Shown one piece after another: positions 23,882 through 40,401 of a stretch of DNA of 40,870 nt. The stretch covers positions 1 through 40,870 of the IMG/VR virus record IMGVR_UViG_2917413769_000003; one strand, written 5' to 3'. How positions within the stretch are numbered: position 1 is the first letter of the stretch; each line of letters begins with the position of its first letter. This DNA comes from a virus (lineage: Duplodnaviria > Heunggongvirae > Uroviricota > Caudoviricetes). The translations under genes and the position numbers were made by a program. Under the pieces are notes generated by a model, which saw only the letters and a program-made list of their open reading frames with translations, did not search any database and was not told where the DNA came from.

Positions 23882-24304
23882 TTATGCCGCTGGGCGGTTT
23901 CTGTGCAAAGTCCTAAGCATCTGAGGCTTTGACTGTACCGACTGATCCATTTCGAGAACCACGTCCAGCATCGCCAGGCAACCGTCGATAAATCCCTCTG
24001 CGGCCTGGAGCCTCTTCAGAACGTGGGTATGCGATACGCCGAGCTTCTCGCCCATCGCCCGTACTGGCATGGCCTGAACGTAATGCCACTCAAGCAGTGT
24101 GCACAGATACGGATCTTTTTTCTTCAGGCAGTTCATAGCGGAGCTGATGATCAGACCGTCGTTGTCGCTGCACTTAAGCCGTCCGGCTTGCGTTGTGGGT
24201 AGCAGATTCTTAAATCCTGCAGCTACAGGGGGAAAGTAAATACTACCGCCTTCACTCGCAGCCCAGCCACCCCATCGATCTAAAACCTGTTGAATATTAC
24301 GCAT
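23882..24304 (-). CDS. Late-gene antitermination protein Q (E. coli QuuD-like)
   Basis: N-terminus MRNIQQVLDRWGGWAAS...VAAGFKNL closely resembles QuuD MRDIQMVLERWGAWAA...IAAGFKGL as recalled; located upstream of lysis cassette. Confidence 0.8.
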   Translation of the reverse strand: MRNIQQVLDRWGGWAASEGGSIYFPPVAAGFKNLLPTTQAGRLKCSDNDGLIISSAMNCLKKKDPYLCTLLEWHYVQAMPVRAMGEKLGVSHTHVLKRLQAAEGFIDGCLAMLDVVLEMDQSVQSKPQMLRTLHRNRPAA

Positions 24305-24435: not shown

Positions 24436-24623
24436 GGAACCACCTGCCCCCACCTGGAACCACCTTTTTCTAACCTTTCCCCCAATCGACTTATATATAT
24501 ATATGGGGTTTCTAATAGAAAGGTGGTTCCAGTGGTTCCAGTAGTTCCGCACCGCTTGCCGCAAGGGCTGCGAGGTGGAACCACCTTCGCTTTTAGGTGG
24601 TTCCACGTGGTTCCAGCGGTTCC
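24436..24623. repeat. Iteron array (GGTGGTTCC / GGAACCACC, about 9 copies in both orientations) flanking a (TA)n tract; putative replication origin
   Basis: Copies at about 24436, 24456, 24522, 24532, 24574, 24596, 24607, 24615; TATATATATATAT at 24491..24504; directly 3' of the primase-helicase gene. Confidence 0.5.
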
Positions 24624-26779
24624 CAAACCTTGCATTTTTTCCCCTCAATTCGCCGTTGAGCACGCTTATAGCCGCAATTTTGCAAAACATTGCTAATTCG
24701 CATTTCTTCGCGTTTTCCGATGTGGCTGGGATTTAAACCAATCGCATCGCGCAGAACGTCGCTAGCGCGTAAAAATTCGCAATTTCGCGGAATGTCGTTA
24801 GTCATCAGGTCGGGTGTGTCGAGCCATTTCTCGACCGTTTCGAGCCACGCATCCTTAATGGTGTACTGCTCGTGGACACTCGCGCCGAGACGCTCAGCAT
24901 CGCGGAACTGGATGCCGCCGAGGCGCTTAAACGTCTCGCGAGCCTCCGCCCATAGCAAAAGGAGGTCGGTTTTTATCGCTTTCACGTCGACTTTCGACAC
25001 CTCCACGGGAAGCCAGCGACGGTTACCGGTCTTGTCTGCGAGGAATTCGTCCTCGTTGGTGGTGCCGACGAACACCAGGCGACGCGGGAACTGTGTAGCG
25101 AACTCACGATACTTAGGGATCCAGTTCTCATGTGTACGCGTCACGAATGCCTTAATGCTTTCCAGCTCTTTGGTATTGAGGCCGCGCAGCTCGCCAATCT
25201 CCGCCACCAGCCGCCCGCGCATCTTGCGTGCGAGATCGTCATCTTTCTCAGCGAAAGATATCTCGGTGAAGAATGCCGGGTCGGGGCTCAACGCCTCCAC
25301 GCCGGAGGATTTACCGCAGCCCTGAGGCCCGACGAGGATCGGCACCATATCGGCTTTGACGCCAGGCTCCAGCACCCTGCCCGCCAGCGCCGTCCACATG
25401 TACATGGACACCGCACGGGTGTATGCCGTGTCGGCAGTACCGAAGTGCGTGTGGTAGAAAGATTCGATACGCGGCACGCCGTCCCACTCCAGTCCGTTCA
25501 GCCAGGTTGTCGCGGAGTCGAAGGGCTGTTCGTCAGCGGCCAGCAGCACGACGTCGCGAATGAGCTCGCGCCCCACAGGTTTGAAGCCGCGCTTTTCCAT
25601 CGTGATGCGCAGGCGTGCATAGTCGGCATCGGTGAACGCCTGCCACTGGCCGGAGCCCGCAGAGGAAAACATGATTTCGTCGCGGAACTGGTCAAAGCGG
25701 ATATCGATGTCCACGAAGTCAGGGCGTACAACCGCTTTGGCTGCATTGCTGATGGTCGACTCGATGCGCCCCCATTTATCACGTTCGAACGCTGGCAGCG
25801 GTAACGGCTCGGCTACTTCGGTGCTGGTCAGGTCCTCGAAATCGTCGTTGCGGATCCCAATAGCATTAAGGAAATCGCCGTCGTCGCGGTGTGCGCAGCT
25901 GGCGTGCAGGCATTTGAAATGACCCTGCTCAAAGCCCGCGGTACCACCCGGGAAGTAAACCGTGCTCGTCGGGTCGCCGCCAGTACTGTGGCCGTCCTCG
26001 AACGGGCAGCGGATATAGCGCTCGCCGTTCGCACCATCCAGCAGCGTCCAGCCATTGGCGTCCAGATAATCCGCCGTCTCATCAGTAGCACCGGGCGTGA
26101 ACGTCGAACGGTCGCGCATCTTCGTACTACCCGCTTCTGTGGTGACCGACACAGGCAGCTGATCCGCCAGGCGCTGCCACAGCGTTTCGAGTTGGTCAGC
26201 AGTAATGACAGGCGGTTCATCCGGCAGATCACCGTCCCACTCAATCCGGGCGCCGCTGCTGTGTGTACCGCAGGCAACGAACTGCTGCCCATTGGCCAGC
26301 AGCTCAACGATGCCCAAATCGCCCGCCAGGCGGTGAATGCGTTTACGGAAATCGCCGTCGACAGCCAGCAGGTACAGGCATTTATTGCTGTTGGCACGCC
26401 AACGCCGCGGCGGCAGTTCGCCCAGCAACTGCACCAGCGTGTTGCGAATATCGGCCTGGATGTCTTCGTCTTCGCTGTCGCAGTCCAGCGCCAACCAGCC
26501 AAAGCCGGTGCGCACACAGATCCCGTAATCAGGCTCTCTGGACCAGCGGGCAAAGTCATGCTCAGTGACGACATGCTCGGTCCACTGAGCAATACCGGTA
26601 ACCAGGCGGTCACGGTTATAGCGGCTCGGCGTCTTGCCCAGCGCTTTCAGTTTACTGTCGGGGGAAATGGCCGCGCCCGGGTTGCACACGACCGGCAGCA
26701 GCTGGTCAGTACGACCCAGCACCAGATCGAAGTGGAACCATTCGTCAGGCGTCGCCCCCCAGTTCTTATTCTCTGGCAT
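24593..26779 (-). CDS. Bifunctional primase-polymerase (AEP) / SF3 helicase replication protein
   Basis: 728 aa; N-terminal AEP-like motifs (WLALDCD; ACGTHSSG) and C-terminal Walker A GPQGCGKSS; start 3 nt after cro stop. Confidence 0.75.
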   Translation of the reverse strand: MPENKNWGATPDEWFHFDLVLGRTDQLLPVVCNPGAAISPDSKLKALGKTPSRYNRDRLVTGIAQWTEHVVTEHDFARWSREPDYGICVRTGFGWLALDCDSEDEDIQADIRNTLVQLLGELPPRRWRANSNKCLYLLAVDGDFRKRIHRLAGDLGIVELLANGQQFVACGTHSSGARIEWDGDLPDEPPVITADQLETLWQRLADQLPVSVTTEAGSTKMRDRSTFTPGATDETADYLDANGWTLLDGANGERYIRCPFEDGHSTGGDPTSTVYFPGGTAGFEQGHFKCLHASCAHRDDGDFLNAIGIRNDDFEDLTSTEVAEPLPLPAFERDKWGRIESTISNAAKAVVRPDFVDIDIRFDQFRDEIMFSSAGSGQWQAFTDADYARLRITMEKRGFKPVGRELIRDVVLLAADEQPFDSATTWLNGLEWDGVPRIESFYHTHFGTADTAYTRAVSMYMWTALAGRVLEPGVKADMVPILVGPQGCGKSSGVEALSPDPAFFTEISFAEKDDDLARKMRGRLVAEIGELRGLNTKELESIKAFVTRTHENWIPKYREFATQFPRRLVFVGTTNEDEFLADKTGNRRWLPVEVSKVDVKAIKTDLLLLWAEARETFKRLGGIQFRDAERLGASVHEQYTIKDAWLETVEKWLDTPDLMTNDIPRNCEFLRASDVLRDAIGLNPSHIGKREEMRISNVLQNCGYKRAQRRIEGKKCKVWEPLEPRGTT

Positions 26780-27124: not shown

Positions 27125-27799
27125 ATGATTGATACCACCGATATCCTTTCTCAAAACATCAAGTACCTGATGGACAAAGCCAAGATAAGCTCGATAACCG
27201 AGCTAGCTCGTCGGTTACAACTGAATCAGCCAACATTACACAGGCTGGTATCTGGGGAAGTGAAAGACCCGAAATACGCAACGCTGAAGCAGATCGCCGA
27301 TTACTTCCGAGTGTCCCCGATTGACCTGGCGGAAAAGAGCCTTCAGGAGATGAGTAACGGAGGCGACGCCAATACAACAACCTACATATCTCTTCGATTT
27401 AATAAGGTGCCGGTCTTGGGAAATACTCAGCTTGGTGTTGGGGGACTTTGGAGCGACACTCCGTATTCGGTGGGCAGCAGCGATGGCTTCATCTACTGGC
27501 CGACAAAAGATGAAGATGCATATGCTCTGAAATGCGTTGGCGACTCAATGATGCCAAGAATTAAAGAGGGGGAATTCGTAATCGTCGAACCCAACCATGA
27601 CTACGCCCCGGGGGATGAAGTTCTTGTCGTTACGCAGGATGGTGAAGTTATGGTTAAAACTTTCCTGTTCGAGCGCGATGGTCTGTTTCACCTGATGTCC
27701 GTAAACGAAGACCACCCACCAATTAGGGTATCACGCGAAAACATCGAGAAAATCCATTACGTGGCTGGAATTGCTAAATCCGCCCTACGCATGTACTAG
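27125..27799 (+). CDS. CI-like repressor (HTH + S24 LexA-type peptidase domain)
   Basis: 224 aa; N-terminal HTH; C-terminal KCVGDSMMPRI (Ser nucleophile) and VMVKTF (Lys). Confidence 0.8.
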   Translation: MIDTTDILSQNIKYLMDKAKISSITELARRLQLNQPTLHRLVSGEVKDPKYATLKQIADYFRVSPIDLAEKSLQEMSNGGDANTTTYISLRFNKVPVLGNTQLGVGGLWSDTPYSVGSSDGFIYWPTKDEDAYALKCVGDSMMPRIKEGEFVIVEPNHDYAPGDEVLVVTQDGEVMVKTFLFERDGLFHLMSVNEDHPPIRVSRENIEKIHYVAGIAKSALRMY

Positions 27800-28551: not shown

Positions 28552-28701
28552 ATGAAACCTGAACACCTCCACCGGCTGACGGGGCGCGACGTGCTCCGCT
28601 ATCGCCGCAACCACTTCGATTTAATTACCGGCCTGGCCCTCGCTACTGCGTGCGGTCTGGTTATTACCTTCATTCTCCTTGTAGCGAGGACCGCAGTATG
28701 A
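28552..28701 (+). CDS. Small membrane protein (49 aa, single TM)
   Basis: RBS AAAGGAG; [49 protein letters not shown]; stop overlaps next gene ATG (ATGA). Confidence 0.4.
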   Translation: MKPEHLHRLTGRDVLRYRRNHFDLITGLALATACGLVITFILLVARTAV

Positions 28702-29615
28702 GCTTAGAAACTAGTCTCGAACTTAACAACAAGCTGCTGACGCAGCACAACGCCCTGCTTGAACAGCTGATTACGGCACTGGCTTCAGGCCAGACAATTC
28801 AGCCGCAGACCCTCGTCACCCAGGTACAGGAATATCGCGAGACGGTACCGGACAAATCGGCCACTGATGACGAGCGGCCGGATCTGGAAACGCTGGAATT
28901 CAGCGACGTTATCGCGCTGGCATGTTTCTACCCTTTACCAGTTATGTACAGCTTCGAGATGTTCCAGCGCGCTATCGATTATCGCGATGCTGTTGGCGAC
29001 AAACGTGTGGTGCAGATCGACGCGCTGGACATGGCGCTCCAGGGTGTGAAACGCGCCAACCATCTGAGCAAGCCAGCACTGTTAGATCTGGCTCGCCACG
29101 TTATTCGCTTCTGGGATGATTTGCCGACTATTGAGTCCCGCCGCGACTTTGCCGAACGCCTGCTGGATGCGCCAGCTGCCGGACGCGACGAAGTAAAACC
29201 GAAGAAGGCCAGCGGCAAAGACAAACAGTCTGAGGAACGCACCGGGCCGTTTTACTGCAAAAGCGTAGACGGTAAGGCAGCCAGTGAGCTCCACACTTTA
29301 CGCAAACTGAATGCAATGCTGGAGAAAGGCCACGTTGAGATCAACCGGGTCGAGTACCTCCAACTGCAGGAAGAATTCGCACGTAAAGACGCAGTAAACA
29401 GCGGACAGGGTAAAGACGATGAAACGGATGATACTCCCGACTTTGCGGCACTGCGTAAACAGGCCGAAGGGCTGATTCTGCAGCTGGCGAAAGGTGGTTA
29501 CCGCGCCGAAGCCGTCGCCATTCTGGAAAAACATGGCGCCCAAAAACTTGGCGGTGTTGCTGACGAGGATCTCGCAGACGTGATCGCCCAGGCCGAAAAA
29601 GCGCTGGAGGGTTGA
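28698..29615 (+). CDS. Hypothetical phage early protein
   Basis: ORF track 28650..29615; start at ATG 28698 ([12 protein letters not shown]...) assumed. Confidence 0.5.
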
Positions 29616-29617
29616 GA

Positions 29618-30916
29618 ATGCCAGACGTTCACGCACGACTTTCCCCCTCTGCGGCGCATCGCTGGATGCGCTGCCCCGGTAGCCTGGCGCTGGAAGCCAC
29701 GCAGCCAGATAAAAGCAGCACCTTTGCGGAAGAAGGCACCGCAGCGCATGCACTCGCTGAAAAAGTGCTGCGCAACCGCCAAAGCCACCCCGAGCATTAT
29801 GCCGGGTGCAACGTCGCAATGTTCCTCGGCTCATATCCATTAAGCGAAAACCCGGATGACCAGTCCGGCCCGCAAGTGAACGAGGAAATGGTCGAGGCCG
29901 TTGGCCTTTATACCGACACGCTCTGGACGCTCGCTCAGGGCAACGAGCTGCTGGTCGAGCAGCGTGTCGACTTTTCCCACATCTTCGGCGTGCCTGATTC
30001 ATTCGGTACCGCCGATGGGGTAATCATCGCTGGCAACGAGCTGCAGATCCACGACCTCAAATACGGGAAGGGGGTTCGCGTCGACGCCGAGCAGAACGAA
30101 CAGTTGCAGCTGTACGCCCTGGGCGCGCTGGAGCAGTTCAGCATGCTGTATGACTTCGAGACGGTGCGCCTGTTCATCCACCAGCCGAGGCTTAACCACG
30201 TTTCAGAGTGGGCCCTGACGGTGGAAGAGCTCCAGGCGTTCGGCGAACGGGCGCAGGAAGCGGCGGCCAACGTGATCGTGATGTTCAACATTGCCGATTG
30301 CGAAGGCGTCGAAACGCTGCCGCTGGAAAACTTCACTCCAGGCGAAAAACAGTGTCGGTTCTGCAAGGCTAGTGCCATCTGCACCGCCCGGGAACAACTG
30401 CACATCAGTACCATCGCGGGGGATTTCGACGACATAACGCAGTCCGTTGGCGATCTGCTGGCTGACTCAATCGCGCGGGTACCGCTACTAACCGTTGAAC
30501 AGCTGGCAGAGGTATACAGCCAGGCGGACTTTATCGAATCCTGGCTAAAGGCCGTGCGCGACCGGGTGAACAGTGAGCTGAACGCCGGGCATCAGGTTCC
30601 GGGCTTTAAGCTGGTCACCGGCAAGCTGGGTAACCGCGCCTGGAGCAACGAAGCAGAAGCAGAAGAGCTGCTGAAATCCTTCAGGCTGAAACAGGAACAG
30701 ATGTACAGCATGAAAGTAATCAGCCCGACGCAGGCCGAGAAGTTGCTTAAGAAAGAAAGTCCGCGCCGCTGGACAAAAGCCGAAGCCCTGATCACCCGCG
30801 CTGACGGTAAACCCACCGTCGCCCCTGAATCTGACCCGCGCCCTGCGCTCAATATCAACCCTGTTAACGATTTCGACGACGTGTCCGACGACGCGCTCGC
30901 CGCAGACCTCATCTGA
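29618..30916 (+). CDS. PD-(D/E)XK family nuclease (DUF2800, Cas4/RecB-like) with C-terminal Cys cluster
   Basis: ORF track starts at TTG 29612; ATG 29618 with GGAGGG RBS; N-terminal [14 protein letters not shown] and [10 protein letters not shown] cluster. Confidence 0.65.
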
Positions 30917-30931
30917 TTAAGGAACAACTCC

Positions 30932-31480
30932 ATGAAAATTAAACTGAACAACGTCCGTCTGGCCTTCCCTGCTCTGTTCGAAGCAAAAACCGTGAATGGC
31001 GAAGGCGACCCGCGCTTCTCTGCTGTTTTCCTAATGGATCCGAAGCACCCGCAGCTGGACGAAGTCCGCAAAGCGCTGAAGCAGGTGGCGAAGGAAAAAT
31101 GGGGTGAGAAATGGGAAACCATTTACAACCAGCTGGAGAAAAAGCTCAACCTCTGCCTGCATGACGGTGACGAGAAAGCCGAATACGAAGGCTTCCCGGG
31201 CAACTTCTTCCTGAATGCTGCCAACAAAGCGCGCCCGGCAGTCATCGATCGCGACCGTTCTCCCCTCATCCAGGCTGATGGCCGTCCTTACGCCGGTTGC
31301 TACGTCAACGCGGTGATCGACATCTGGGCGCAGGACAACAACTTCGGCAAACGTGTTAACGCATCGCTGGGCGGCGTCCAGTTCCTGCGCGACGGTGACG
31401 CGTTCGCTGGCGGTGGTGTTGCCGCTCCGGACGACTTCGACGACATCAGCGAAGGCGCAGACGCGGGCGAGCTGATTTAA
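30932..31480 (+). CDS. Phage ssDNA-binding protein (DUF2815-like)
   Basis: 182 aa; follows DUF2800-like gene as in the common DUF2800/DUF2815/PolA phage module; acidic C-terminal tail (DDFDDISEGADAGELI). Confidence 0.6.
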   Translation: MKIKLNNVRLAFPALFEAKTVNGEGDPRFSAVFLMDPKHPQLDEVRKALKQVAKEKWGEKWETIYNQLEKKLNLCLHDGDEKAEYEGFPGNFFLNAANKARPAVIDRDRSPLIQADGRPYAGCYVNAVIDIWAQDNNFGKRVNASLGGVQFLRDGDAFAGGGVAAPDDFDDISEGADAGELI

Positions 31481-31525: not shown

Positions 31526-31717
31526 ATGCGAAGGATTTATATCCGGCTGGTCATCACTCTGGCTATCGCCGCGCTCGTTTACGGCTTCCTGGTTCCTTCC
31601 CTGATCTCGATGAAGGACACCGTGGCTGTGCTGTCTGGTTTCGCGCTGGCGCTGACCGCGCCGCCGTGTCTGTTTGCCATTTTCAAAGGCATCTTTATTA
31701 CTAAGGAAAAGAAATGA
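31526..31717 (+). CDS. Small membrane protein (2 TM), partner of SPFH protein
   Basis: 63 aa, two hydrophobic helices; stop overlaps SPFH start (ATGA). Confidence 0.45.
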   Translation: MRRIYIRLVITLAIAALVYGFLVPSLISMKDTVAVLSGFALALTAPPCLFAIFKGIFITKEKK

Positions 31718-32550
31718 AGAAAATTATCTTTGCTGCCGTCGTCGCCCTGTCGGCGCTGGCTCTGTCTGGTTGCGAACGCGCCACCGTTCCCGCGGGTTAC
31801 GTCGGCGTTAAAGTGGACCTCTACGGTGACGAAAAAGGCGTTCAGCAGTCCGAAGTCGGCGTCGGTAAATATTGGCTGACGTGGAACGAAGAGATTTACC
31901 AGTTCCCGACGTTCAACCAGCTGCACAACTATGATCAGCCATTCACCTTCCAGACCGCCGACTCAATGGATGTGAAAGCCCGGATCGGCGTCGAATATTA
32001 TGTCGACCCCGAAAAGGTGACCAAAATATTCCAGACCTACCGCAAAGGGGTGGACGAAATAACCGAGGTCAACCTGCGCCAAAATATCAGTGATGCGCTG
32101 ATCAACCACTCCGGGAAGATGAATATCAACTCGCTGGCAGCCGGAGGCAAAACGCAACTGCTCGAACAGGTTACGCAGGATCTGAAGTCCAAACTTGACC
32201 CCATCGGCATCAGAATCGTGAAGCTGTCATGGGTAAGCGACCTGGACTACCCGCAGAAAGTGAAAGAATCCATCAACGCGAAAATCGAGGCCACACAGCG
32301 CGCGCTGCTGCGCGAGAACGAGATCGCCCAGTCTAAAGCCGAAGCCCAGAAGGCAATCGAGCAGGCACGCGGCGAAGCAGAATCCACCATGTTGCGCGCC
32401 AAAGCTGAATCTGACGCTATTGCCCTTCGCGGTGAAGCGTTACGCAGTAACCCCGAAGTGCTGCAACTGGAAGCGATTAATAAATGGAATGGCACATTGC
32501 CGCAGTATCTGACCAGCGGCGCAGCAACTCCCTTTATCCCCCTGAAGTAA
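31714..32550 (+). CDS. SPFH/band-7 domain lipoprotein (prohibitin/flotillin-like)
   Basis: 278 aa; lipoprotein signal [20 protein letters not shown]; band-7-like core and C-terminal coiled coil ([22 protein letters not shown]...). Confidence 0.65.
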
Positions 32551-32624
32551 TCACCTCACCCGGCCACGCGCCGGGTGTTTTGCAAAGAGCATCCCTTTTC
32601 GCAAAGCACCCGCGAGGACTATCT

Positions 32625-34691
32625 ATGCCTGAAAAAATTCTCTGGGGCGACCTGGAAACCTTCTGCAGCATTCCTATCAACAACGGCACGCACGCTTATG
32701 CGGAAAGTGTCGAGGTGATGCTGTTCGCCTGGGCAATCGGCGACGAACCGGTTAGCGTCTGGGATCTGACTGCTGGCGAACCTATCCCCGGCAGGCTGCG
32801 GAAGGCCATCGCCGACCCTGACACTATTCTATTTTTCCACAATTCACACTTCGACCGCACGGTCCTGCGCCATGCAATGCCGGAACTGGCACCCGATGTC
32901 ACCCGCTGGCGCGACACGATGGTGCAGGCGCTGGCGCACAGTCTCCCCGGTGCACTGGGGGCGCTCTGCGAGGTGCTGGGCGTTCCGCAGGACAAAGCCA
33001 AGGATAAAGAAGGTAAAGCGCTGATCCAGCTATTCTGCAAGCCACGACCGAAAAACAGCAAACTTCGCCGGGCCACCAGCAAAACCCACCCGGAAGAGTG
33101 GCGGCGCTTTGTTGCCTATGCCGGGCTGGATATTGAGGCCATGCGCGAAGTGCATAAGCGCCTGCCGAAGTGGAATTATCAGGGTGCAGAGCTGGCGCTC
33201 TGGCATCGCGATCAGCGCATTAACGACCGCGGCGTCTGCATGGATGTGCAGCTCGCGCAGGCGGCGATCGAGGCGGTAGACCAGGAGCAAAAGCGCCTGG
33301 CGAAACGCACGCAGGTGATGACCGACGGCGAAGTGCAGGCGGCTACGCAGCGCGATGCGCTGATTAAGCACATTGTTGAATCCTACGGCGTGGATCTGCC
33401 GGACATGCAGCGCAGCACGCTGGAGCGCCGCATCGCGGATCCTAATTTACCGTCTGCGGTGAAAGAGCTGCTACACATCAGGCTCCAGGCCAGCACCACC
33501 AGCACCAGTAAGTACAAATCACTGATGAAGGGTGTAAGCCGTGACGGTCGCCTGCGTGGCACGCTTCAGTTCTGTGGCGCATCGCGTACCGGGCGCTGGG
33601 CCGGGCGGTTATTCCAGCCCCAAAACCTGCCCCGCCCTTCCCTTGAGCAGGAACGTATCGACGAAGGCATAGAGGCGCTGAAATCAGGATGCGCCGATCT
33701 GCTGTTCGACAACATCATGGAGTTGACCAGCTCGGCTTTGCGCGGCTGCATTATGGCCCCCGAGGGCAAAAAGCTGGTGGTTAGCGACCTGTCGAACATC
33801 GAAGGACGAAAACTGGCCTGGCTGGCTGGGGAACAGTGGAAGCTGGACGCGTTCCGGGAGTTCGACGAGGGCACCGGGCCGGACCTATACAAACTGGCCT
33901 ACGCCCGCGCCTTCAACATCTCGCCGGATGATGTCGACAAATACCAGCGTCAGATCGGCAAGGTGATGGAGCTGGGTCTCGGCTTCGGCGGTGGTGTTGC
34001 GGCGTTCCTGACCTTCGCGCTGGTTTACGGCCTCGACCTTGACGAACTGGCGAACGCTGCGCTGCCGAATATCCCCCGCGATCTTATCCGCGAGGCGAAA
34101 AGCTGGTACGACGAATCGGTTAAACGCAAGTCGACCTACGGCCTGTCAGAGCGCGTATTCATCGCCTGCGATTCGCTTAAACGCCTCTGGCGCAGAGCCC
34201 ACCCGGCAACCTGCGATTTCTGGTACGAGCTGGAGCGCACCGTCCGCACCGCCATCGCAACCCCGAAAAAGACGCTGTACTGCGGCTATCTGAAAATTCG
34301 CCGCGATGGTGCATGGTTGCGCATACAGCTGCCGTCCGGGCGCGCGCTGTGCTACCCGTCCCCGTCCATTGAGAAAGGAAACATCACCTATCAGGGCGTA
34401 AATTCCTACTCGCGCAAATGGCAGCGGCTCAAAACCTACGGCGGGAAACTGGTGGAAAACGTCACCCAGGCGGCAGCCCGTGACGTTCTGGCCGGAAACA
34501 TGCCGCTGATCGAGGATGCCGGTTACAGCATTGTGCTGACGGTACACGATGAAGTGATCACCGAAGCGCCGGACACCGACGATTTCAACGAAACGGCGCT
34601 TTCCGCGCTGCTCTCCACTAACCCCGAATGGGCGCCCGATATCCCGCTGAACGCTGGCGGCTTCGAAGCGATTCATTACCGTAAGGATTGA
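32625..34691 (+). CDS. Family A DNA polymerase (phage-type, with 3'-5' exonuclease region)
   Basis: ORF track 32484..34691; start at ATG 32625 with GAGGA RBS; length and position after DUF2800/DUF2815 genes. Confidence 0.75.
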
Positions 34692-34695
34692 CCCC

Positions 34696-34905
34696 ATGAA
34701 ACAAGGCAACATCCAAAACTTCGCCATCATTGTTCTGGTAAACGGCGGAACTAAACAGGTCTTTTTGACCAAAGAACAAAAGCGGCTTTTCGCAAAGCTC
34801 ACTCTCGGCGCGTTGAGCGACAGGCCGATTACCATGATGCCTATCGACGACATGATCCAGCTGCAGCCGGACAATGACGCATTTTCAGACGGCGGCCCGC
34901 TATGA
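34696..34905 (+). CDS. Hypothetical small protein
   Basis: 69 aa ORF translationally coupled within PolA operon. Confidence 0.4.
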   Translation: MKQGNIQNFAIIVLVNGGTKQVFLTKEQKRLFAKLTLGALSDRPITMMPIDDMIQLQPDNDAFSDGGPL

Positions 34906-35114
34906 AACACATGTTTATGGTGATGGATAGCCGTGCACAGTTCGATATCGACCGCGCCGCTGTCCTCGAATGCTGCGGCGAAAAACAACCATCCTGGCGT
35001 TCCCTGTGCAGGGATTGGGGCGAACAAGGCGCAGTTCTGGTCCGCTTCCGTCTGGTACCAAACACTAACGGCGACGTAGCTACCGATCCCGAAGTTGTTG
35101 GCACCATCAAATAA
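34902..35114 (+). CDS. Hypothetical small protein
   Basis: 70 aa ORF, start overlaps previous stop. Confidence 0.4.
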   Translation: MKHMFMVMDSRAQFDIDRAAVLECCGEKQPSWRSLCRDWGEQGAVLVRFRLVPNTNGDVATDPEVVGTIK

Positions 35115-35125
35115 GGTAATCCCCT

Positions 35126-35341
35126 ATGTCATTCGAAAAACACGACAGTCCGTTGTATTTCCGGTCTGCGCGGGAGGCTATGCGTCTTGAGCAGGCTGGC
35201 GAGTATGACCGGGCGGCGAAGGTATGGGCCAAAGCAAACCGGGAATCACGCAACCCGGTAAACCAGCAATGGAGCGATAACCGCTCTGATTTCTGCATCA
35301 TGCAGAACATCCGCAGCAAACGTAAAGAGGTGCAACTGTGA
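35126..35341 (+). CDS. Hypothetical small protein
   Basis: 71 aa ORF, stop overlaps next gene start. Confidence 0.4.
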   Translation: MSFEKHDSPLYFRSAREAMRLEQAGEYDRAAKVWAKANRESRNPVNQQWSDNRSDFCIMQNIRSKRKEVQL

Positions 35342-36114
35342 TCCCAGGTGAAATTAACACCCTCATCAGCACTGGTGCGCTCTTTGTATCAAACCACAGC
35401 GGCGGAAAAGACAGTCAGGTGATGTTGATTAAACTCCTTGAGATTGTTCCCACTGCGCAGCTTATCGTTGTGCACGCATCGCTCGGTGTTATTGAGTGGC
35501 CAGGTGCACTGGAACTTGCTGAAACTCAGGCTGCAGGCGCGGGTCTGCCGTTCATCGTGGCTCGAGCCAGCAAGACCTTCTTCGAAATGGTAGAACGTCG
35601 CTTTGAGAATCGTCCAGAAGTTCCCAGTTGGCCATCCTCCAGCACCCGACAATGTACCAGTGACCTGAAGCGCGGCCCCATCCAACGCGAGGTACGCCGG
35701 TATGCAAAAGCCAACGGGTTTAAAACCATCGTTAACTGCCTCGGGCTGCGTGCCCAAGAATCACCTGGCCGAGCTAAGCGCCAGGTGTTCAGCAAAATGG
35801 GGATCAGCAACTCAGTTAATACCTGGTACGAATGGCTCCCAGTTCACGAACTGCTTACCGAGGAAGTATTCGCCACCATTCGAATGACTGGACAAGAGCC
35901 GCACTACGCCTACGCTCTGGGCAATGAGCGATTAAGTTGTGTGTTCTGCATCATGGCCAGCCGTAACGATATGGTTAACGGCGCCCGGCATAACCCACCC
36001 TTGCTGGAGGAATACGCAGACCTAGAGGCTAAGACTGGGTACACCATGCATATGAGCCGGATCCCCATTCGAGTGCTGGCGGCTGACGACGAAAACAAGG
36101 TACATGCAGCATGA
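35338..36114 (+). CDS. PAPS reductase-like PP-loop ATPase (phage PAPS reductase / DndC-like family)
   Basis: 258 aa; GTG start; PP-loop SGGKDS near N-terminus; C-terminal Cys pair (CVFC). Confidence 0.7.
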   Translation: MIPGEINTLISTGALFVSNHSGGKDSQVMLIKLLEIVPTAQLIVVHASLGVIEWPGALELAETQAAGAGLPFIVARASKTFFEMVERRFENRPEVPSWPSSSTRQCTSDLKRGPIQREVRRYAKANGFKTIVNCLGLRAQESPGRAKRQVFSKMGISNSVNTWYEWLPVHELLTEEVFATIRMTGQEPHYAYALGNERLSCVFCIMASRNDMVNGARHNPPLLEEYADLEAKTGYTMHMSRIPIRVLAADDENKVHAA

Positions 36115-36392
36115 CCTACGAGCGTGAAAGCACTATCGAAAAGCACCTCGTCGCCGAAGTGAAAAAGGCTGGCGGGCTGGCTTATAAATTCGTGTCGCCT
36201 GGCCGCCGCTCGGTACCAGATCGCATTGTGCTGTTACCCGGCGGCCGTCTCGTCTTTGTCGAATGCAAAGCACCTGGCAAACCACCACGCGCCGACCAGC
36301 TGCGCGAGCACGAACGGCTGCGCGCACTGGGCTTTTGCGTGGTGGTGCTGGATAGCAAAGACCTTTCGCAAGTGCTATCTCTAGCGCCCTAA
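36111..36392 (+). CDS. VRR-NUC domain nuclease
   Basis: 93 aa; PD-(D/E)XK core PDRIVLL...FVECKAPG; start overlaps previous stop. Confidence 0.7.
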   Translation: MTYERESTIEKHLVAEVKKAGGLAYKFVSPGRRSVPDRIVLLPGGRLVFVECKAPGKPPRADQLREHERLRALGFCVVVLDSKDLSQVLSLAP

Positions 36393-37307
36393 CTGAGGGT
36401 TGCGGAAGTTGTCAGCAATTCGCATCGCATCAGCTCTCCCGCCGGGCAGCATCCCCGCCTTCGTCAGGATGTATTTAGGGAACTTGGTGGGCAAATACTC
36501 ATGACGGAACCAACGACGAAATTCTGGCAACGCTTCGTTGGGATAAGCGTTAATCATCTGAGGATTCGAAGTAGATTGATTAAAGTCATCCGGATAGTGA
36601 TGCGCACATTGAACGCGATCACCGAACTGACGTGAGAGGCCGTTTGACGTCCAGTGACGCCCCCAGCATGAACCGACGCTGATATCAGGCACGGTATACA
36701 TATTCACCGCAAGACCAGCGGTAATCAGGTCAACCATTAAACCCGCAATTTCGTTAAAAATGATAAAGTGGCCGTCGGGTACCGTGCCGGTACTTTGGAT
36801 AATGGAAACCCGCTGATGATAAGGCCCCCAAGGGTCTTCTGGCTGGTATCGCAACGCGCCATAAATATAATCCCGAAGCCCGACTCGGGCTAATTCGCGA
36901 TAGTATTGTTGCGCGGTTGAATTTGATGCTGCTTGCGATTCAAAAGCATAAAACTCGAGCAGAGCCATACACACAATATCAGGGAATGCGTAATGTACAG
37001 AGCCTGCACGCATAACCGAGATAAATAGCACAGGGTCTGTATAACCGGCTTGCTGAAGATATGTGCTAATAAACTCCATTCGCCCACGAGTAAAAACCCC
37101 GCTCTGGAAGCACTGAGCGTATTCGTTTGCGATGTCTGCAATGTTTGTGCGGTTGACGCCGCAGATTCTTGCGAGTCCGTTCTGAGTAAGGTACGGAATA
37201 CCGTTCTCCAAAACACCCATTTCAATATCGTTGAAAACACCTTCCTGCCTAACTCCAAGATCTAATACAGCAGGGGGTGTGGGCTGAGGCTGATTCTGTG
37301 TAGTCAT
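36381..37307 (-). CDS. Hypothetical protein, opposite-strand low-GC insert (moron-like)
   Basis: 308 aa on the minus strand inside a plus-strand operon; visibly lower GC than flanks; 3' end overlaps VRR-NUC 3' end by 12 nt. Confidence 0.5.
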   Translation of the reverse strand: MTTQNQPQPTPPAVLDLGVRQEGVFNDIEMGVLENGIPYLTQNGLARICGVNRTNIADIANEYAQCFQSGVFTRGRMEFISTYLQQAGYTDPVLFISVMRAGSVHYAFPDIVCMALLEFYAFESQAASNSTAQQYYRELARVGLRDYIYGALRYQPEDPWGPYHQRVSIIQSTGTVPDGHFIIFNEIAGLMVDLITAGLAVNMYTVPDISVGSCWGRHWTSNGLSRQFGDRVQCAHHYPDDFNQSTSNPQMINAYPNEALPEFRRWFRHEYLPTKFPKYILTKAGMLPGGRADAMRIADNFRNPQLGR

Positions 37308-37409
37308 CTATCTGATTTCCTTATTTTTATACCCTGAGGCTGCGCCTTAGGAATTATCTTAACCCCCTTATTTATACTCCAACTTGCAATTTTTTGCGAG
37401 GTACTAACT

Positions 37410-38804
37410 TTGAGTAAAATCTTCACCCCCCGCCCCTACCAAAATCTCATTATCAACCACGAAATTGACTCTCTGCGCTGCAACATCTGGGCGGGCATGG
37501 GCATGGGTAAAACCGTGGCAACACTCACCACTCTGGAAGATCTCTTCATGGCGGGATCGGAGACGCAGCCCGCGCTGGTTCTCGCGCCGCTGCGCGTGGC
37601 AGCCAGCACCTGGCCGGATGAAGCGGTGAAATGGGGGCATCTGCGCAATATCGAGGTGCAGCCGATTGTCGGTAACGCCAAAGCACGCTCGGCGGCGCTA
37701 GCGAACAGCAACGCAAGCGTGTTCACCATCAACTACGACAATTTGGTCTGGCTGGTGGAAGAGCTGGGCGGCCGCTGGCCGTTCGGTACCGTCATCCCGG
37801 ACGAAAGCACCCGGCTGAAATCCTTCCGGCTGCGTGGGGGTGGCAAGCGTGCAGCGGCACTGGGCAAAGTGGCGCATAAGCATATCCGGCGCTGGATGAA
37901 TCTCACCGGTACGCCAGCGCCAAACGGTCTGGTGGATTTGTGGGGGCAGGCGTGGTTTGTCGACCAGGGGCAGCGCCTCGGACGCACTTACGGCGCGTTT
38001 ACCTCCCGCTGGTTCAACTCAATACAGTTTCCGGGGCAGAGCTGGACGAAGCTGGAGCCATTCGCCCATTCGCAGGACGAGATACAGCGAGCGCTGGCCG
38101 ACGTCACTATCTCACTGGACGCTGCCGACTGGTTCGACATCAAAGAGCCAATCCATAACGTGATCCGCGTGGGCATGCCGCCGAAGGCCCGTCAGCAGTA
38201 TCGCGAGATGGAAAAGGAAATGTTCCTTGAGCTCAACGGCGAGGGCATCGAAGCGCCGAATGCCGCGGCAAAAACAGTGAAGTGCCTGCAAATTGCCAGC
38301 GGCGCGGTGTACACCGACGACGCCGGGAGCTGGTCAGAACTGCACGACGCGAAGCTGCAGGCGCTGGACAGCATACTCACCGAAGCAGCTGGCGCACCGG
38401 TGCTGGTGGCCTACCACTGGAAGCACGATCTGGAGCGCCTGCTTAAAGCGTTCCCTAAAGGTCGCCATCTCGACCAGGATCCGCAGACGCTGCGCGACTG
38501 GAACGCCGGGGAAATCCCGGTGCTGTTCGCGCATCCCGCCAGCGCAGGTCACGGTCTGAACATGCAGGACGGCGGCAACATACTGGTGTTTTTCTCGCAC
38601 TGGTGGGATCTGGAGCAGTACCAGCAAATCATCGAACGCATTGGGCCAACCCGGCAGATTCAGGCCGGACACAACCGCCCGGTGTTCATTCACCACATCA
38701 TCGCTGCCGACACTATGGACGACATGGTGATGGAGCGGATGAACTCAAAACGAACAGTGCAGGACATCCTGCTCGATGCCATGAAGAAGAGAGGTATAGC
38801 ATGA
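37410..38804 (+). CDS. SNF2-family helicase (phage-type)
   Basis: 464 aa; TTG start with AGGT RBS; motifs RPYQ, GMGKT (Walker A), DEST (DExx box). Confidence 0.8.
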   Translation: MSKIFTPRPYQNLIINHEIDSLRCNIWAGMGMGKTVATLTTLEDLFMAGSETQPALVLAPLRVAASTWPDEAVKWGHLRNIEVQPIVGNAKARSAALANSNASVFTINYDNLVWLVEELGGRWPFGTVIPDESTRLKSFRLRGGGKRAAALGKVAHKHIRRWMNLTGTPAPNGLVDLWGQAWFVDQGQRLGRTYGAFTSRWFNSIQFPGQSWTKLEPFAHSQDEIQRALADVTISLDAADWFDIKEPIHNVIRVGMPPKARQQYREMEKEMFLELNGEGIEAPNAAAKTVKCLQIASGAVYTDDAGSWSELHDAKLQALDSILTEAAGAPVLVAYHWKHDLERLLKAFPKGRHLDQDPQTLRDWNAGEIPVLFAHPASAGHGLNMQDGGNILVFFSHWWDLEQYQQIIERIGPTRQIQAGHNRPVFIHHIIAADTMDDMVMERMNSKRTVQDILLDAMKKRGIA

Positions 38805-39001
38805 GCGAGCAACCCGACGATCTGCTCACCCCGGACGAGGTATGCCAGAAGCTGGGCATAACCCAGAAGACGTTATGCGACTGGAATATAAAGCACCGGC
38901 ATCGCGCCGTACTGGCCCCCATCCGTTTCAGCGCGAAAGTGGTTCGCTATGAGCGCCGTAACGTCGACGCCTTCATCCAGAAATGCCGCAGCCAGTATTA
39001 A
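38801..39001 (+). CDS. Excisionase / AlpA-like DNA-binding protein
   Basis: 66 aa in-frame part of ORF 38603..39001; ATG 38801 overlaps SNF2 stop; LLTPDEVCQKLGITQKTLCDW HTH; adjacent to integrase. Confidence 0.55.
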   Translation: MSEQPDDLLTPDEVCQKLGITQKTLCDWNIKHRHRAVLAPIRFSAKVVRYERRNVDAFIQKCRSQY

Positions 39002-40401
39002 CCCCGTCGCCGTAACAGCGCAGCCTGCGCGAGTATGCTCCGTTCGTGAGCCTCGAAGGCTTCGCGCTTCAACGCAATCTCTTCCTGCAAAATCTCGTCT
39101 GAAAAGTCGTAATGTTCTGCCATTGGGTCATCTGACTTGCTGGAGTGATGAAGGCACAGGAGGCTTATTTCCCTTCGATCTGATCGGGAATAACCTCTTT
39201 CCTTCATCAGGGCGATAACGTTGCTCTTAAGGAATTTACGGCACATCGTATTAAATGCCCCCTCTTTCCCTTTAATAGTCCCGTCATGCTTCATGCCTTT
39301 AACAGCGCCTTCCGGGCTATAGGTTTTCACCAGTTTATCCAGCGATCTTTTTGAAAATGGCTGCATTGGGTCACGCGGCTGCAGGAATACAAAATCGTTA
39401 TTGCACTCAGGAACTGAATCACGCCAGGCTTTCTGCTCGTCGATAATCCGCTGGATCTCTGGCGTTATTGGCAAGCGGAAAGCCTTTTGTGTTTTCATGG
39501 CCCCGCGCATACCGATAACTCCTTCCGGATAAACAATTTCGCCAGCATCTTCATTAATGTAATCCCAACGCAGGTTATGAACGTTAATCGGTCGAACGCC
39601 GGTAATAATCATATAGCGAACGGCGTTTTTCTGCTGTATTGAGGTACAGGCGGCCACGTTGAGCCAGAGCCGGGCGATGGATTCAATATCGGTAAAAAGT
39701 CGTGTCGGGGTGGGTTTCTGTACGCGGGAGGAAACATAATCGTCGGGCAGGCTGGCGGCAATGTTGCGGCCATTGCAAAGAGTGGGAGAGCAAAACTTCC
39801 AGAACCGACGAAGCTCGGCAAACAACTCCAGGGCGTTATTGTTCGAGCGAGTGGCGATCCATTCGTCCAGCACTTCCACCAGCCGAGGGTATGTCACGTC
39901 GCTGAACACTTCGCGCTCGCCGAACGTTGCTTTAATCCGGTCGATACGCACCCCGTAGGTGGTGAAACTGTCCGGGCTCAGCTTCTGCCGGGCCACTTTG
40001 GCTTTAAGGTCATCCCGGTACATTTCCAGCGCAGCATGGACGGACTCGGCTCGCAGGCCACCTTCGGCCATACCTGACGCCTTCTCGCGCGCCAGCTGAA
40101 TTGCGAGCTCCGGCCATTCGCCGAGCTTTTTACCTTTGAGCCCCATCTTTTTGGGAAACTCGGCGTAAAATGTAACCTTACCTGCTTTGCTGAAATCGAT
40201 GCGGAGATAGTTCTCTTTTTCGTATTTGGAACGGCGAGCCACGCCGGAAGCAGCGAGGATGGTTTTGGCGGCAGCAACACAGATTTTCATGTGTGCGCTG
40301 GTATAGGGAGGTTTACAGGCGTCCCACTTTTCAGACGCGGCTAAAACATCGTCATTATTGGGGCTATCCGGTTTATGTGTTACAGTGCGCGGCATTCTCA
40401 A
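38998..40401 (-). CDS. Tyrosine integrase
   Basis: 467 aa; C-terminal catalytic region with TGVRP (box I Arg) and LLCLHHSS...EHY (His/Tyr); at prophage end next to host gene. Confidence 0.8.
   Translation of the reverse strand: MRMPRTVTHKPDSPNNDDVLAASEKWDACKPPYTSAHMKICVAAAKTILAASGVARRSKYEKENYLRIDFSKAGKVTFYAEFPKKMGLKGKKLGEWPELAIQLAREKASGMAEGGLRAESVHAALEMYRDDLKAKVARQKLSPDSFTTYGVRIDRIKATFGEREVFSDVTYPRLVEVLDEWIATRSNNNALELFAELRRFWKFCSPTLCNGRNIAASLPDDYVSSRVQKPTPTRLFTDIESIARLWLNVAACTSIQQKNAVRYMIITGVRPINVHNLRWDYINEDAGEIVYPEGVIGMRGAMKTQKAFRLPITPEIQRIIDEQKAWRDSVPECNNDFVFLQPRDPMQPFSKRSLDKLVKTYSPEGAVKGMKHDGTIKGKEGAFNTMCRKFLKSNVIALMKERGYSRSDRREISLLCLHHSSKSDDPMAEHYDFSDEILQEEIALKREAFEAHERSILAQAALLRRRG

Follow-up and report, generated by a model that had tools for sequence, protein, structure and literature searches.

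A PAPS-reductase-like gene in a prophage replication operon

This study concerns a gene whose product resembles 3'-phosphoadenosine 5'-phosphosulfate (PAPS) reductases and which is carried by the Caudoviricetes virus recorded in IMG/VR as IMGVR_UViG_2917413769_000003; the whole stretch of 40,870 nucleotides (nt) that was analysed is referred to here as the window. The gene lies in a prophage, between the gene for a small ANR-family regulator and the gene for a VRR-NUC nuclease (Table 1). A sequence-only reading of the window had described the PAPS-like gene and the nuclease gene as translationally coupled within the PolA operon, and had suggested a role in DNA modification or processing. Both open reading frames (ORFs) were recovered where that reading had placed them (35338-36114 and 36111-36392), and their location in the operon is borne out by their lying on the PolA strand with tight gene junctions, whilst a sequence scan of the plus strand across 32002-37332, from the PolA gene through VRR-NUC, returned no promoter-like or terminator-like sites. 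The feature itself is already known, in that it has an identical RefSeq entry, a PHROG family, a place in the literature and a gene order that recurs in Salmonella and Citrobacter loci. What we add is that the protein is a solo, minimal member of the DndC/SspD/BrxP branch with a PAPS-reductase fold, belonging to a family of partner-less relatives of the phosphorothioation sulfurtransferases; that its database label is probably wrong as a description of its chemistry; and that its adjacency to the nuclease gene is positional and incidental rather than a functional pairing.

The PAPS-like gene starts with GTG, with an AGAGG Shine-Dalgarno sequence approximately 7 nt upstream, and this start overlaps the ANR stop codon (GTGA, 35338-35341) in the same way that its own stop overlaps the VRR-NUC start by 4 nt (ATGA, 36111-36114). 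In NCBI a 100%-identical protein (P0001) is recorded with 257 aa (MPGEIN...), one fewer than here, and would on that annotation begin at ATC, a non-canonical start; the position that lines up with the ATG starts of the orthologues (MIP...) is the GTG at 35338, which has the AGAGG site before it. The protein matches PF01507 (PAPS_reduct) over residues 19-205, with E 1e-8 and a score of 35.9 bits where the cutoff is 22.5, and also phrog_424 (E 3.3e-38). By word-index search we found 5283 homologues; those ranked in the top 120 are 75-100% identical and come from Enterobacteriaceae, Aeromonas, Serratia, Dickeya and Pseudomonas, with a 100%-identical protein present in Escherichia sp. E1130. At E <= 1e-3 an exhaustive HMMER search of 1.84 billion cluster representatives found 1959 clusters, of which 302 remained at E <= 1e-30. 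The AlphaFold2 model, built on a 43-sequence alignment, has a mean pLDDT of 95.2 and a pTM of 0.91, and the gene is under strong purifying selection, with pairwise ratios of nonsynonymous to synonymous divergence (dN/dS) of 0.03-0.06 against the Salmonella, Citrobacter and Klebsiella-phage copies. Taken together, the number of homologues, the confidence of the model and the low dN/dS establish that this is a real gene and not a chance ORF.

Fold, motifs and family relationships

The protein belongs to the PAPS_reduct/PP-loop ATP-pyrophosphatase superfamily, matching its domain model and possessing both the Rossmann-like alpha/beta fold and a canonical PP-loop. Pfam and the model agree on a single domain, in which 258 residues form the core fold and a short helical tail. 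When PADLOC profiles are ranked, BrxP comes first (7.6e-19, residues 15-228), followed by SspD (6.1e-8, residues 19-233) and DndC (4.5e-5), the last of these being a partial match in which the DndC profiles align with residues 99-188 only (E 4.5e-5 to 7e-3) rather than over their full length. Four DNA-phosphorothioation systems are established, and BrxP, SspD and DndC supply the sulfurtransferase in three of them (PMC12914056). The earlier description of a PP-loop protein with a PAPS-reductase fold and a relationship to DndC therefore stands. The nearest solved fold is that of [4Fe-4S] APS reductase, and the closest also include, with scores in brackets, the PAPS domain of an FAD synthase (14.9), PAPS reductases (14.2-14.8), TtuA (14.8) and NcsA (13.7). 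A search of solved structures with the single protein sequence gave no direct match, and the family profile found only marginal ones.

We examined residue conservation in an alignment of 43 family members with identities down to 37%. The motifs SGGKDS, R-x-C-T-S-D-L-K, G-x-R-x-x-E-S-x-x-R and R-L-S-C-x-F-C are kept throughout, and the invariant residues comprise S21, G23, K24, D25 and S26 of the PP-loop; R104, C106, T107 and K111; G136, R138, E141, S142 and R145; R198, S200, C201 and C204; and E230. The sequence-only reading had picked out the PP-loop and a C-terminal Cys pair, and both are present (residues 21-26 and C201-V-F-C204). It had not mentioned C106, which brings the number of invariant cysteines to three; the remaining cysteine of the protein, C134, is not conserved. 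The C-terminus reads ...AADDENKVHAA, with no Cys past residue 204 and no ECGLH tail. The three invariant cysteines are compatible with a predicted [4Fe-4S] cluster for which C106 would be the putative third ligand, as judged by conservation and by analogy with related enzymes.

Adjacency to the VRR-NUC nuclease

The neighbouring protein was correctly identified as a VRR-NUC nuclease. It matches the solved VRR-NUC structures 4qbo (E 5.8e-14) and 4qbn (2e-10), retains the PD...ExK signature (as VPDR...VECK), and matches phrog_93, annotated 'endonuclease', at E 3.5e-31; Pfam gave no match at E <= 0.01. Its E. coli orthologues are named 'VRR-NUC domain-containing protein' or 'PDDEXK family nuclease' in RefSeq. 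With the same size as the 4qbo/4qbn proteins, approximately 90 aa, and a full-length match to them, it is an ordinary member of its family. VRR-NUC homologues of this size are stand-alone nucleases of the Holliday-junction-resolvase type, and the protein encoded here would likewise be an independent replication or recombination nuclease of that type.

When the region from the end of PolA to VRR-NUC was used as a query, it matched 80 of 5426 complete E. coli genomes, in each case in two separate segments with the PAPS-like gene left out between them. The order of genes is PolA-ANR-DUF7446-VRR-NUC-(BstA)-SNF2-integrase-yfhL in UPEC957C and PolA-TIR-ANR-VRR-NUC-(hypothetical)-helicase-integrase-yfhL in ECZP248. 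VRR-NUC and ANR are thus core genes of the replication module, with the PAPS-like gene an optional presence between them. The order ANR-PAPS-VRR-NUC is found again, with identical overlaps, in 13 Salmonella and Citrobacter (C. koseri) loci of the prophage lineage. Beyond this lineage, no VRR-NUC, PolA or SNF2 homologue lies within 4-9 kb of the PAPS homologue in any of 36 other genome and phage loci, and a VRR-NUC homologue stands beside the PAPS homologue in one of 80 IMG/VR loci, where it is on the opposite strand.

One could suppose that the two genes nevertheless form a functional unit, in which the PAPS-like enzyme marks DNA and the nuclease acts on DNA with or without the mark, or in which the two proteins form a complex, and the 4-nt stop/start overlap and the order kept in the 13 loci would both fit such a unit. 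Four-nucleotide overlaps are, however, the default junction in this operon, occurring also at orf69/orf70, ANR/PAPS and SNF2/AlpA, so that the overlap says nothing specific about this pair. The nuclease gene persists without the PAPS-like gene in the 80 E. coli relatives, PAPS homologues occur without VRR-NUC in 36 of 36 genome and phage loci and in 79 of 80 IMG/VR loci, the histories of the two genes differ (synonymous divergence, dS, of the PAPS-like gene is 1.4-4.3 times that of VRR-NUC across the same locus pairs), and VRR-NUC proteins of this size, including the 4qbo/4qbn family, stand alone. For these reasons we regard a two-gene unit as very improbable and the adjacency as positional. 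Of the proposed coupling, then, the overlap is real but the meaningful pairing is not upheld, and the practical message is that the position of the PAPS-like gene next to VRR-NUC in the window should not be taken as evidence that the two work together.

A mobile cassette in a variable slot

Between ANR and VRR-NUC lies a variable slot, and the PAPS-like gene occupies it as a mobile accessory cassette, a behaviour apparent from base composition and synonymous divergence that differ from those of its flanks. Its GC content at third codon positions is 0.575 against 0.72-0.74 for PolA and SNF2, and across the same locus pairs its dS is 1.2-2.4, compared with 0.43-0.49 for PolA, 0.40-0.56 for SNF2 and 0.53-0.87 for VRR-NUC. 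Used alone as a query against E. coli, the gene gave no megablast match and a single blastn match, which lies in the nin region of a lambdoid prophage unrelated to this one. A copy that is 84% identical in nucleotide and 90% in amino acid sequence is carried, again in a nin-like region, by a lambdoid Klebsiella phage that is likewise unrelated; there it is followed by a gene annotated 'antitoxin'. Homologues with 70-79% amino acid identity occur in Pseudomonas phages and conjugative plasmids, the conjugative Pseudomonas plasmids carrying the subfamily at 76% identity, and index entries for the Salmonella protein, P0013, extend over 1164 blocks of the collection.

In the E. coli relatives ANR is followed directly by VRR-NUC, or DUF7446 occupies the place of the PAPS-like gene. 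The presence of TIR, DUF7446 and HNH genes as cargo in relatives (Table 1) indicates that the interval from PolA to VRR-NUC has several insertion slots. Across relatives the slots contain Nmad5 or SPFH; HNH, TIR or small ORFs; DUF7446 or PAPS; and BstA, Dcm or genes of no recognised kind. The last of these slots, which follows VRR-NUC, holds BstA or an unrelated hypothetical gene in E. coli and a C5 DNA methyltransferase or unknowns in Salmonella and Citrobacter, and it looks like a hotspot for defence and anti-defence genes.

Family neighbours and plasmid relatives

Neighbouring genes were scanned with Pfam for two genes on either side of the PAPS homologue in 33 genome and phage loci, and for one gene on either side in 77 IMG/VR loci. 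No recurrent partner emerged from these scans, and there were no dndD or dndE neighbours in either set or in the window. The commonest recognisable neighbours were DNA methyltransferases (N6_N4 in 3 of the 33 loci; C5 or N6_N4 in about 3-5 of the 77). In Pseudomonas phage Dolphis a DNA methyltransferase gene overlaps the PAPS stop, and in PseuP_222 an adenine methyltransferase lies just upstream of the PAPS homologue. The PAPS-like protein itself has no methyltransferase domain, nor is there an adjacent methyltransferase in the window. Replication-O proteins stand beside the PAPS homologue in three loci, and primase-helicases are also neighbours in other phages.

Twenty longer members of the family (365-1117 aa) were searched with Pfam for fusion partners, and their extensions are almost all without a domain, the exceptions being isolated instances of DUF6884 and DUF3799 (PDDEXK-like) and a weak Tpt1 match. 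These extensions are uninformative and some may be gene-call artefacts.

PAPS-family homologues also occur in apparently non-integrated large phages, and more distant members of the family are found on 1769 plasmids, 1076 of them conjugative. The IncHI2 plasmid NZ_LT985297.1 (locus L133, 5803-8187) encodes a 794-aa 'PAPS reductase family protein' that is approximately 28% identical to residues 6-190 of the protein studied here and that is found widely in E. coli, Salmonella and Enterobacter on large conjugative plasmids of the IncHI2 type. Its gene sits in a block with small unknown genes, an HNH protein and, some 3 kb upstream, a site-specific DNA methyltransferase. In at least two loci a large RNB-domain ribonuclease follows the PAPS homologue, one on a Pseudomonas conjugative plasmid (L134, 5803-7815) and one in a Pseudomonas genome (L022, 6722-8812). 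Papers on plasmid leading regions make no mention of the subfamily.

The prophage right arm

The right arm of the prophage closes the window, and the host ferredoxin gene yfhL (40610 onward) adjoins the integrated element. It is a temperate phage of the type DUF2800 - Enc34-like single-stranded DNA-binding protein (SSB) - PolA - VRR-NUC - SNF2, next to yfhL. The SPFH/Band-7 gene fills the slot between SSB and PolA, where relatives have an Nmad5 'nucleotide modification' protein or nothing, and its ORF overlaps an upstream extension of the PolA ORF; the true PolA start is probably M48 (nt 32625), matching the 688-aa orthologues. The 3' ends of BstA and VRR-NUC overlap by 12 nt. Besides its separate PolA/SNF2 replication module, the prophage also encodes a primase-helicase.

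Table 1. Features of the prophage and of related loci. Positions are those of the window unless a locus is named.
Feature	Position	Strand	Evidence or remark
Q-type antiterminator	23882-24304	-	
PrimPol-VapE/DUF5906 primase-helicase	24593-26779	-	
CI-like S24 repressor	27125-27799	+	
321-aa ORF	28650-29615	+	in the plus-strand replication operon
DUF2800/PD-(D/E)xK nuclease	29612-30916	+	
Enc34-type ssDNA-binding protein	30932-31480	+	
SPFH/Band-7 protein	31714-32550	+	lipoprotein-like N-terminus; PF01145 E 1.1e-24
PolA, family-A DNA polymerase	32484-34691	+	
Two small ORFs	between PolA and ANR gene	+	
ANR-family small regulator, 71 aa	35126-35341	+	NCBIfam NF033650 ANR_neg_reg E 1.7e-20
PAPS-like gene, 258 aa	35338-36114	+	PF01507, phrog_424
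PP-loop S21-G-G-K-D-S26	35398-35415	+	ATP pyrophosphatase signature, read from sequence
R104-x-C106-T107-S-D-L-K111	35647-35670	+	invariant motif; C106 codon 35653-35655
R198-L-S200-C201-V-F-C204	35929-35949	+	invariant motif; C201-V-F-C204 at 35938-35949
VRR-NUC nuclease, 93 aa	36111-36392	+	phrog_93, 4qbo/4qbn
BstA abortive-infection gene, convergent to VRR-NUC	36381-37307	-	PADLOC BstA E 4.6e-113; phrog_6287 6.2e-105
SNF2 helicase	37410-38804	+	
AlpA-like protein	38801-39001	+	
Integrase	38998-40401	-	
TIR-domain protein, PolA-VRR-NUC interval	L038 (E. coli ECZP248) 5149-5907		
DUF7446 protein, PolA-VRR-NUC interval	L037 5328-5585		
HNH endonuclease, PolA-VRR-NUC interval	L041 4299-4778		

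Proposed function and alternatives

Considering the motifs together with the better studied relatives, we tentatively suggest, at rather less than an even chance for the proposal as a whole, that the PAPS-like protein is a solo adenylating Fe-S sulfurtransferase that acts on nucleic acid in lytic growth and serves in counter-defence. The PP-loop would bind ATP and the enzyme would adenylate an oxygen on its substrate, whereupon a [4Fe-4S] cluster held by C106, C201 and C204 would deliver sulfide and displace AMP; a cysteine desulfurase of the host, IscS for example, would furnish the sulfide. The substrate would be nucleic acid, most plausibly the element's own DNA. Given that the gene is co-transcribed with the genes of an early replication operon, and that its homologues in other phages neighbour replication-O proteins, primase-helicases and DNA methyltransferases, action on phage nucleic acid in lytic growth appears most likely, and the resulting modification might let the element escape modification-sensing restriction of the Dnd, Ssp or BREX type 4 kind. 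The part of the sequence-only reading that pointed to DNA modification is a reasonable inference with one precedent in a Vibrio phage (10.1101/2021.05.05.442762), whereas joint processing of DNA with the nuclease finds no support.

There are several points that count against this proposal and need to be considered alongside it. All known phosphorothioation systems combine a PAPS-domain protein with a P-loop NTPase (DndD, SspC or BrxC) and a DNA-recognition component (PMC12914056), and since every known writer needs such a partner, its absence is the main weakness here: no DndD/SspC/BrxC-type NTPase or DNA-recognition protein is a conserved neighbour in the 33 and 77 loci scanned, and nothing in the 258 residues of the protein can be recognised as a DNA-binding domain. 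The assignment of the Fe-S ligands draws on conservation and analogy. The association with methyltransferases is weak, and these enzymes are common in phages anyway. The slots that carry the PAPS-like gene and its alternatives also carry the defence genes BstA and TIR, and slot identity cannot separate defence from counter-defence. The Vibrio precedent concerns a distant protein that is fused to Dam and needed a second gene for its effect, and we found no functional study of the present subfamily in the literature; nor is it listed by AntiDefenseFinder.

Other functions can be envisaged for a protein with this fold. The most familiar is that of a genuine PAPS or adenosine 5'-phosphosulfate (APS) reductase, acting as an auxiliary metabolic gene that boosts host sulfate assimilation, and it is the one that the database label implies. 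CysH-type reductases carry a degenerate PP-loop, whilst the loop found here is the canonical, ATP-type SGGKDS; the ECG(L/I)H tail with the catalytic Cys is missing, the last cysteine being C204. There is no match to a CysH equivalog in NCBIfam, where only PRK13795, PRK08557 and PRK06850 appear, far below threshold, and solved CysH is matched by the family profile at just E ~1e-3 over approximately 60 residues. It is on these grounds that we consider the label 'PAPS reductase' probably wrong as chemistry. The gene also lies in a lytic replication operon and not with sulfur-metabolism genes. We therefore rejected the reading as CysH or an auxiliary metabolic gene on its motifs, and see hardly any chance that the protein is such a reductase. 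A role in thiolating a host or phage tRNA base, as TtuA, TtcA and NcsA do, and so tuning translation during infection, is given somewhat more weight. TtuA and NcsA are Fe-S tRNA thiolases, and both are amongst the closest solved folds. Such a role is still unlikely, since the Zn-finger and tRNA-binding extensions of the tRNA thiolases are missing from the AlphaFold2 model, no curated NCBIfam tRNA-thiolase model matches at E <= 0.01, and the profiles most similar to the protein are those of the DNA enzymes BrxP and SspD.

The same adenylation or thiolation chemistry could instead be directed at a small molecule (a nucleotide, a cofactor or a signalling molecule), as in LarE, QueC and Cap9, for example to neutralise an immune signal or to make a modified nucleotide precursor. 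This we think quite improbable, because the PAPS reductases and TtuA match more closely in structure than those proteins do, DNA-phosphorothioation enzymes provide the nearest sequence profiles and no nucleotide-metabolism pathway is linked to the gene. It may also be that the gene serves the prophage rather than the lytic phage, as a defence or lysogenic-conversion gene expressed in the lysogen against other phages. The carriage of BstA in this prophage and of a TIR protein in the slots of its E. coli relatives would accord with this, as would a proposed defence cluster that pairs a PAPS reductase and a nucleoid-protein sensor (10.64898/2026.04.06.716658). BstA, however, has expression signals of its own and is read from the other strand, whereas the PAPS-like gene has no promoter-like site and overlaps its neighbours on both sides; the neighbour scans revealed no effector or restriction partner; and homologues are also present in apparently non-integrated large phages and on plasmids. 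A lysogen-defence function accordingly seems doubtful to us, to much the same degree as a small-molecule one, and we continue to favour, tentatively, a sulfurtransferase acting on nucleic acid in lytic growth.

The question is of some general interest, as few 'metabolic' annotations in temperate phages are commoner than solo PAPS-reductase-like genes, which are routinely read as sulfur assimilation. The canonical PP-loop, the three invariant cysteines and the missing catalytic tail all argue against that reading, and they favour an adenylating Fe-S sulfurtransferase akin to the DNA-phosphorothioation enzymes. If the counter-defence function is correct, these genes would represent a widespread, single-gene means by which mobile elements evade modification-based immunity.

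Comparison with known systems

Phage PAPS reductases have usually been read, without test, as sulfur-metabolism morons or auxiliary metabolic genes (PMC9144972; 10.64898/2026.02.18.706556), and the view of the sequence-only reading that they are functionally unresolved accords with the literature (PMC13551039; 10.64898/2026.02.18.706556; PMC9144972). The PAPS reductases found in Aca-controlled operons have been listed as DndC/SspD homologues and as candidate anti-defence genes (PMC13551039, 2026 NAR). Compared with APS reductase (2goy) and CysH (1sur, 2o8v, 6vpu), the PAPS-like protein shows 17-19% identity, and without a C-terminal catalytic Cys tail, and with an ATP-type PP-loop, the sulfonucleotide-reductase mechanism is unavailable to it.

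The only phage PAPS-domain protein with a demonstrated counter-defence phenotype is the 479-aa PAPS-Dam fusion which, when given to a Vibrio phage together with a neighbouring gene, rendered it resistant to the host Dnd system (10.1101/2021.05.05.442762). This Vibrio crassostreae phage protein (Piel et al. 2022) likewise contains a phage-borne PAPS domain, lies in an accessory region and is linked to DNA methyltransferases. A tblastn search of the phage collection gave no sign of relatedness between the two proteins at E <= 1, and we therefore rejected orthology; the likeness is one of analogy between different subfamilies.

The closest comparison is with the phosphorothioation enzymes themselves. 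BrxP and SspD, the best profile matches, share the PAPS-reductase fold and the canonical PP-loop. BrxP is a protein of approximately 780 aa fused to a DUF4007 DNA-binding module and works with BrxC, and SspD works with SspB and SspC (PMC12914056; PMC12839542); the PAPS-like protein, in contrast, has 258 residues, no DNA-binding fusion and no NTPase or DNA-recognition neighbour in the 33 and 77 loci. It has in common with DndC the PP-loop and conserved cysteines consistent with an Fe-S cluster, but DndC is about twice as long (profiles of 468-586), is reported to possess a Cys dyad specific to DndC (PMC12839542) and has dndD and dndE encoded alongside it. Placed against these systems, the boldest form of our proposal, which we think unlikely, is that the protein is a one-component thiolation 'writer' that would put a phosphorothioate or other thio-mark on replicating phage or plasmid DNA with only a host IscS-type desulfurase and ATP. 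Such a writer would dispense with the NTPase and DNA-recognition subunits that every known phosphorothioation system requires, and, if it exists, would offer mobile elements a portable mask against phosphorothioate-sensing or modification-dependent defences and a simpler route to DNA thiolation than that of any known system.

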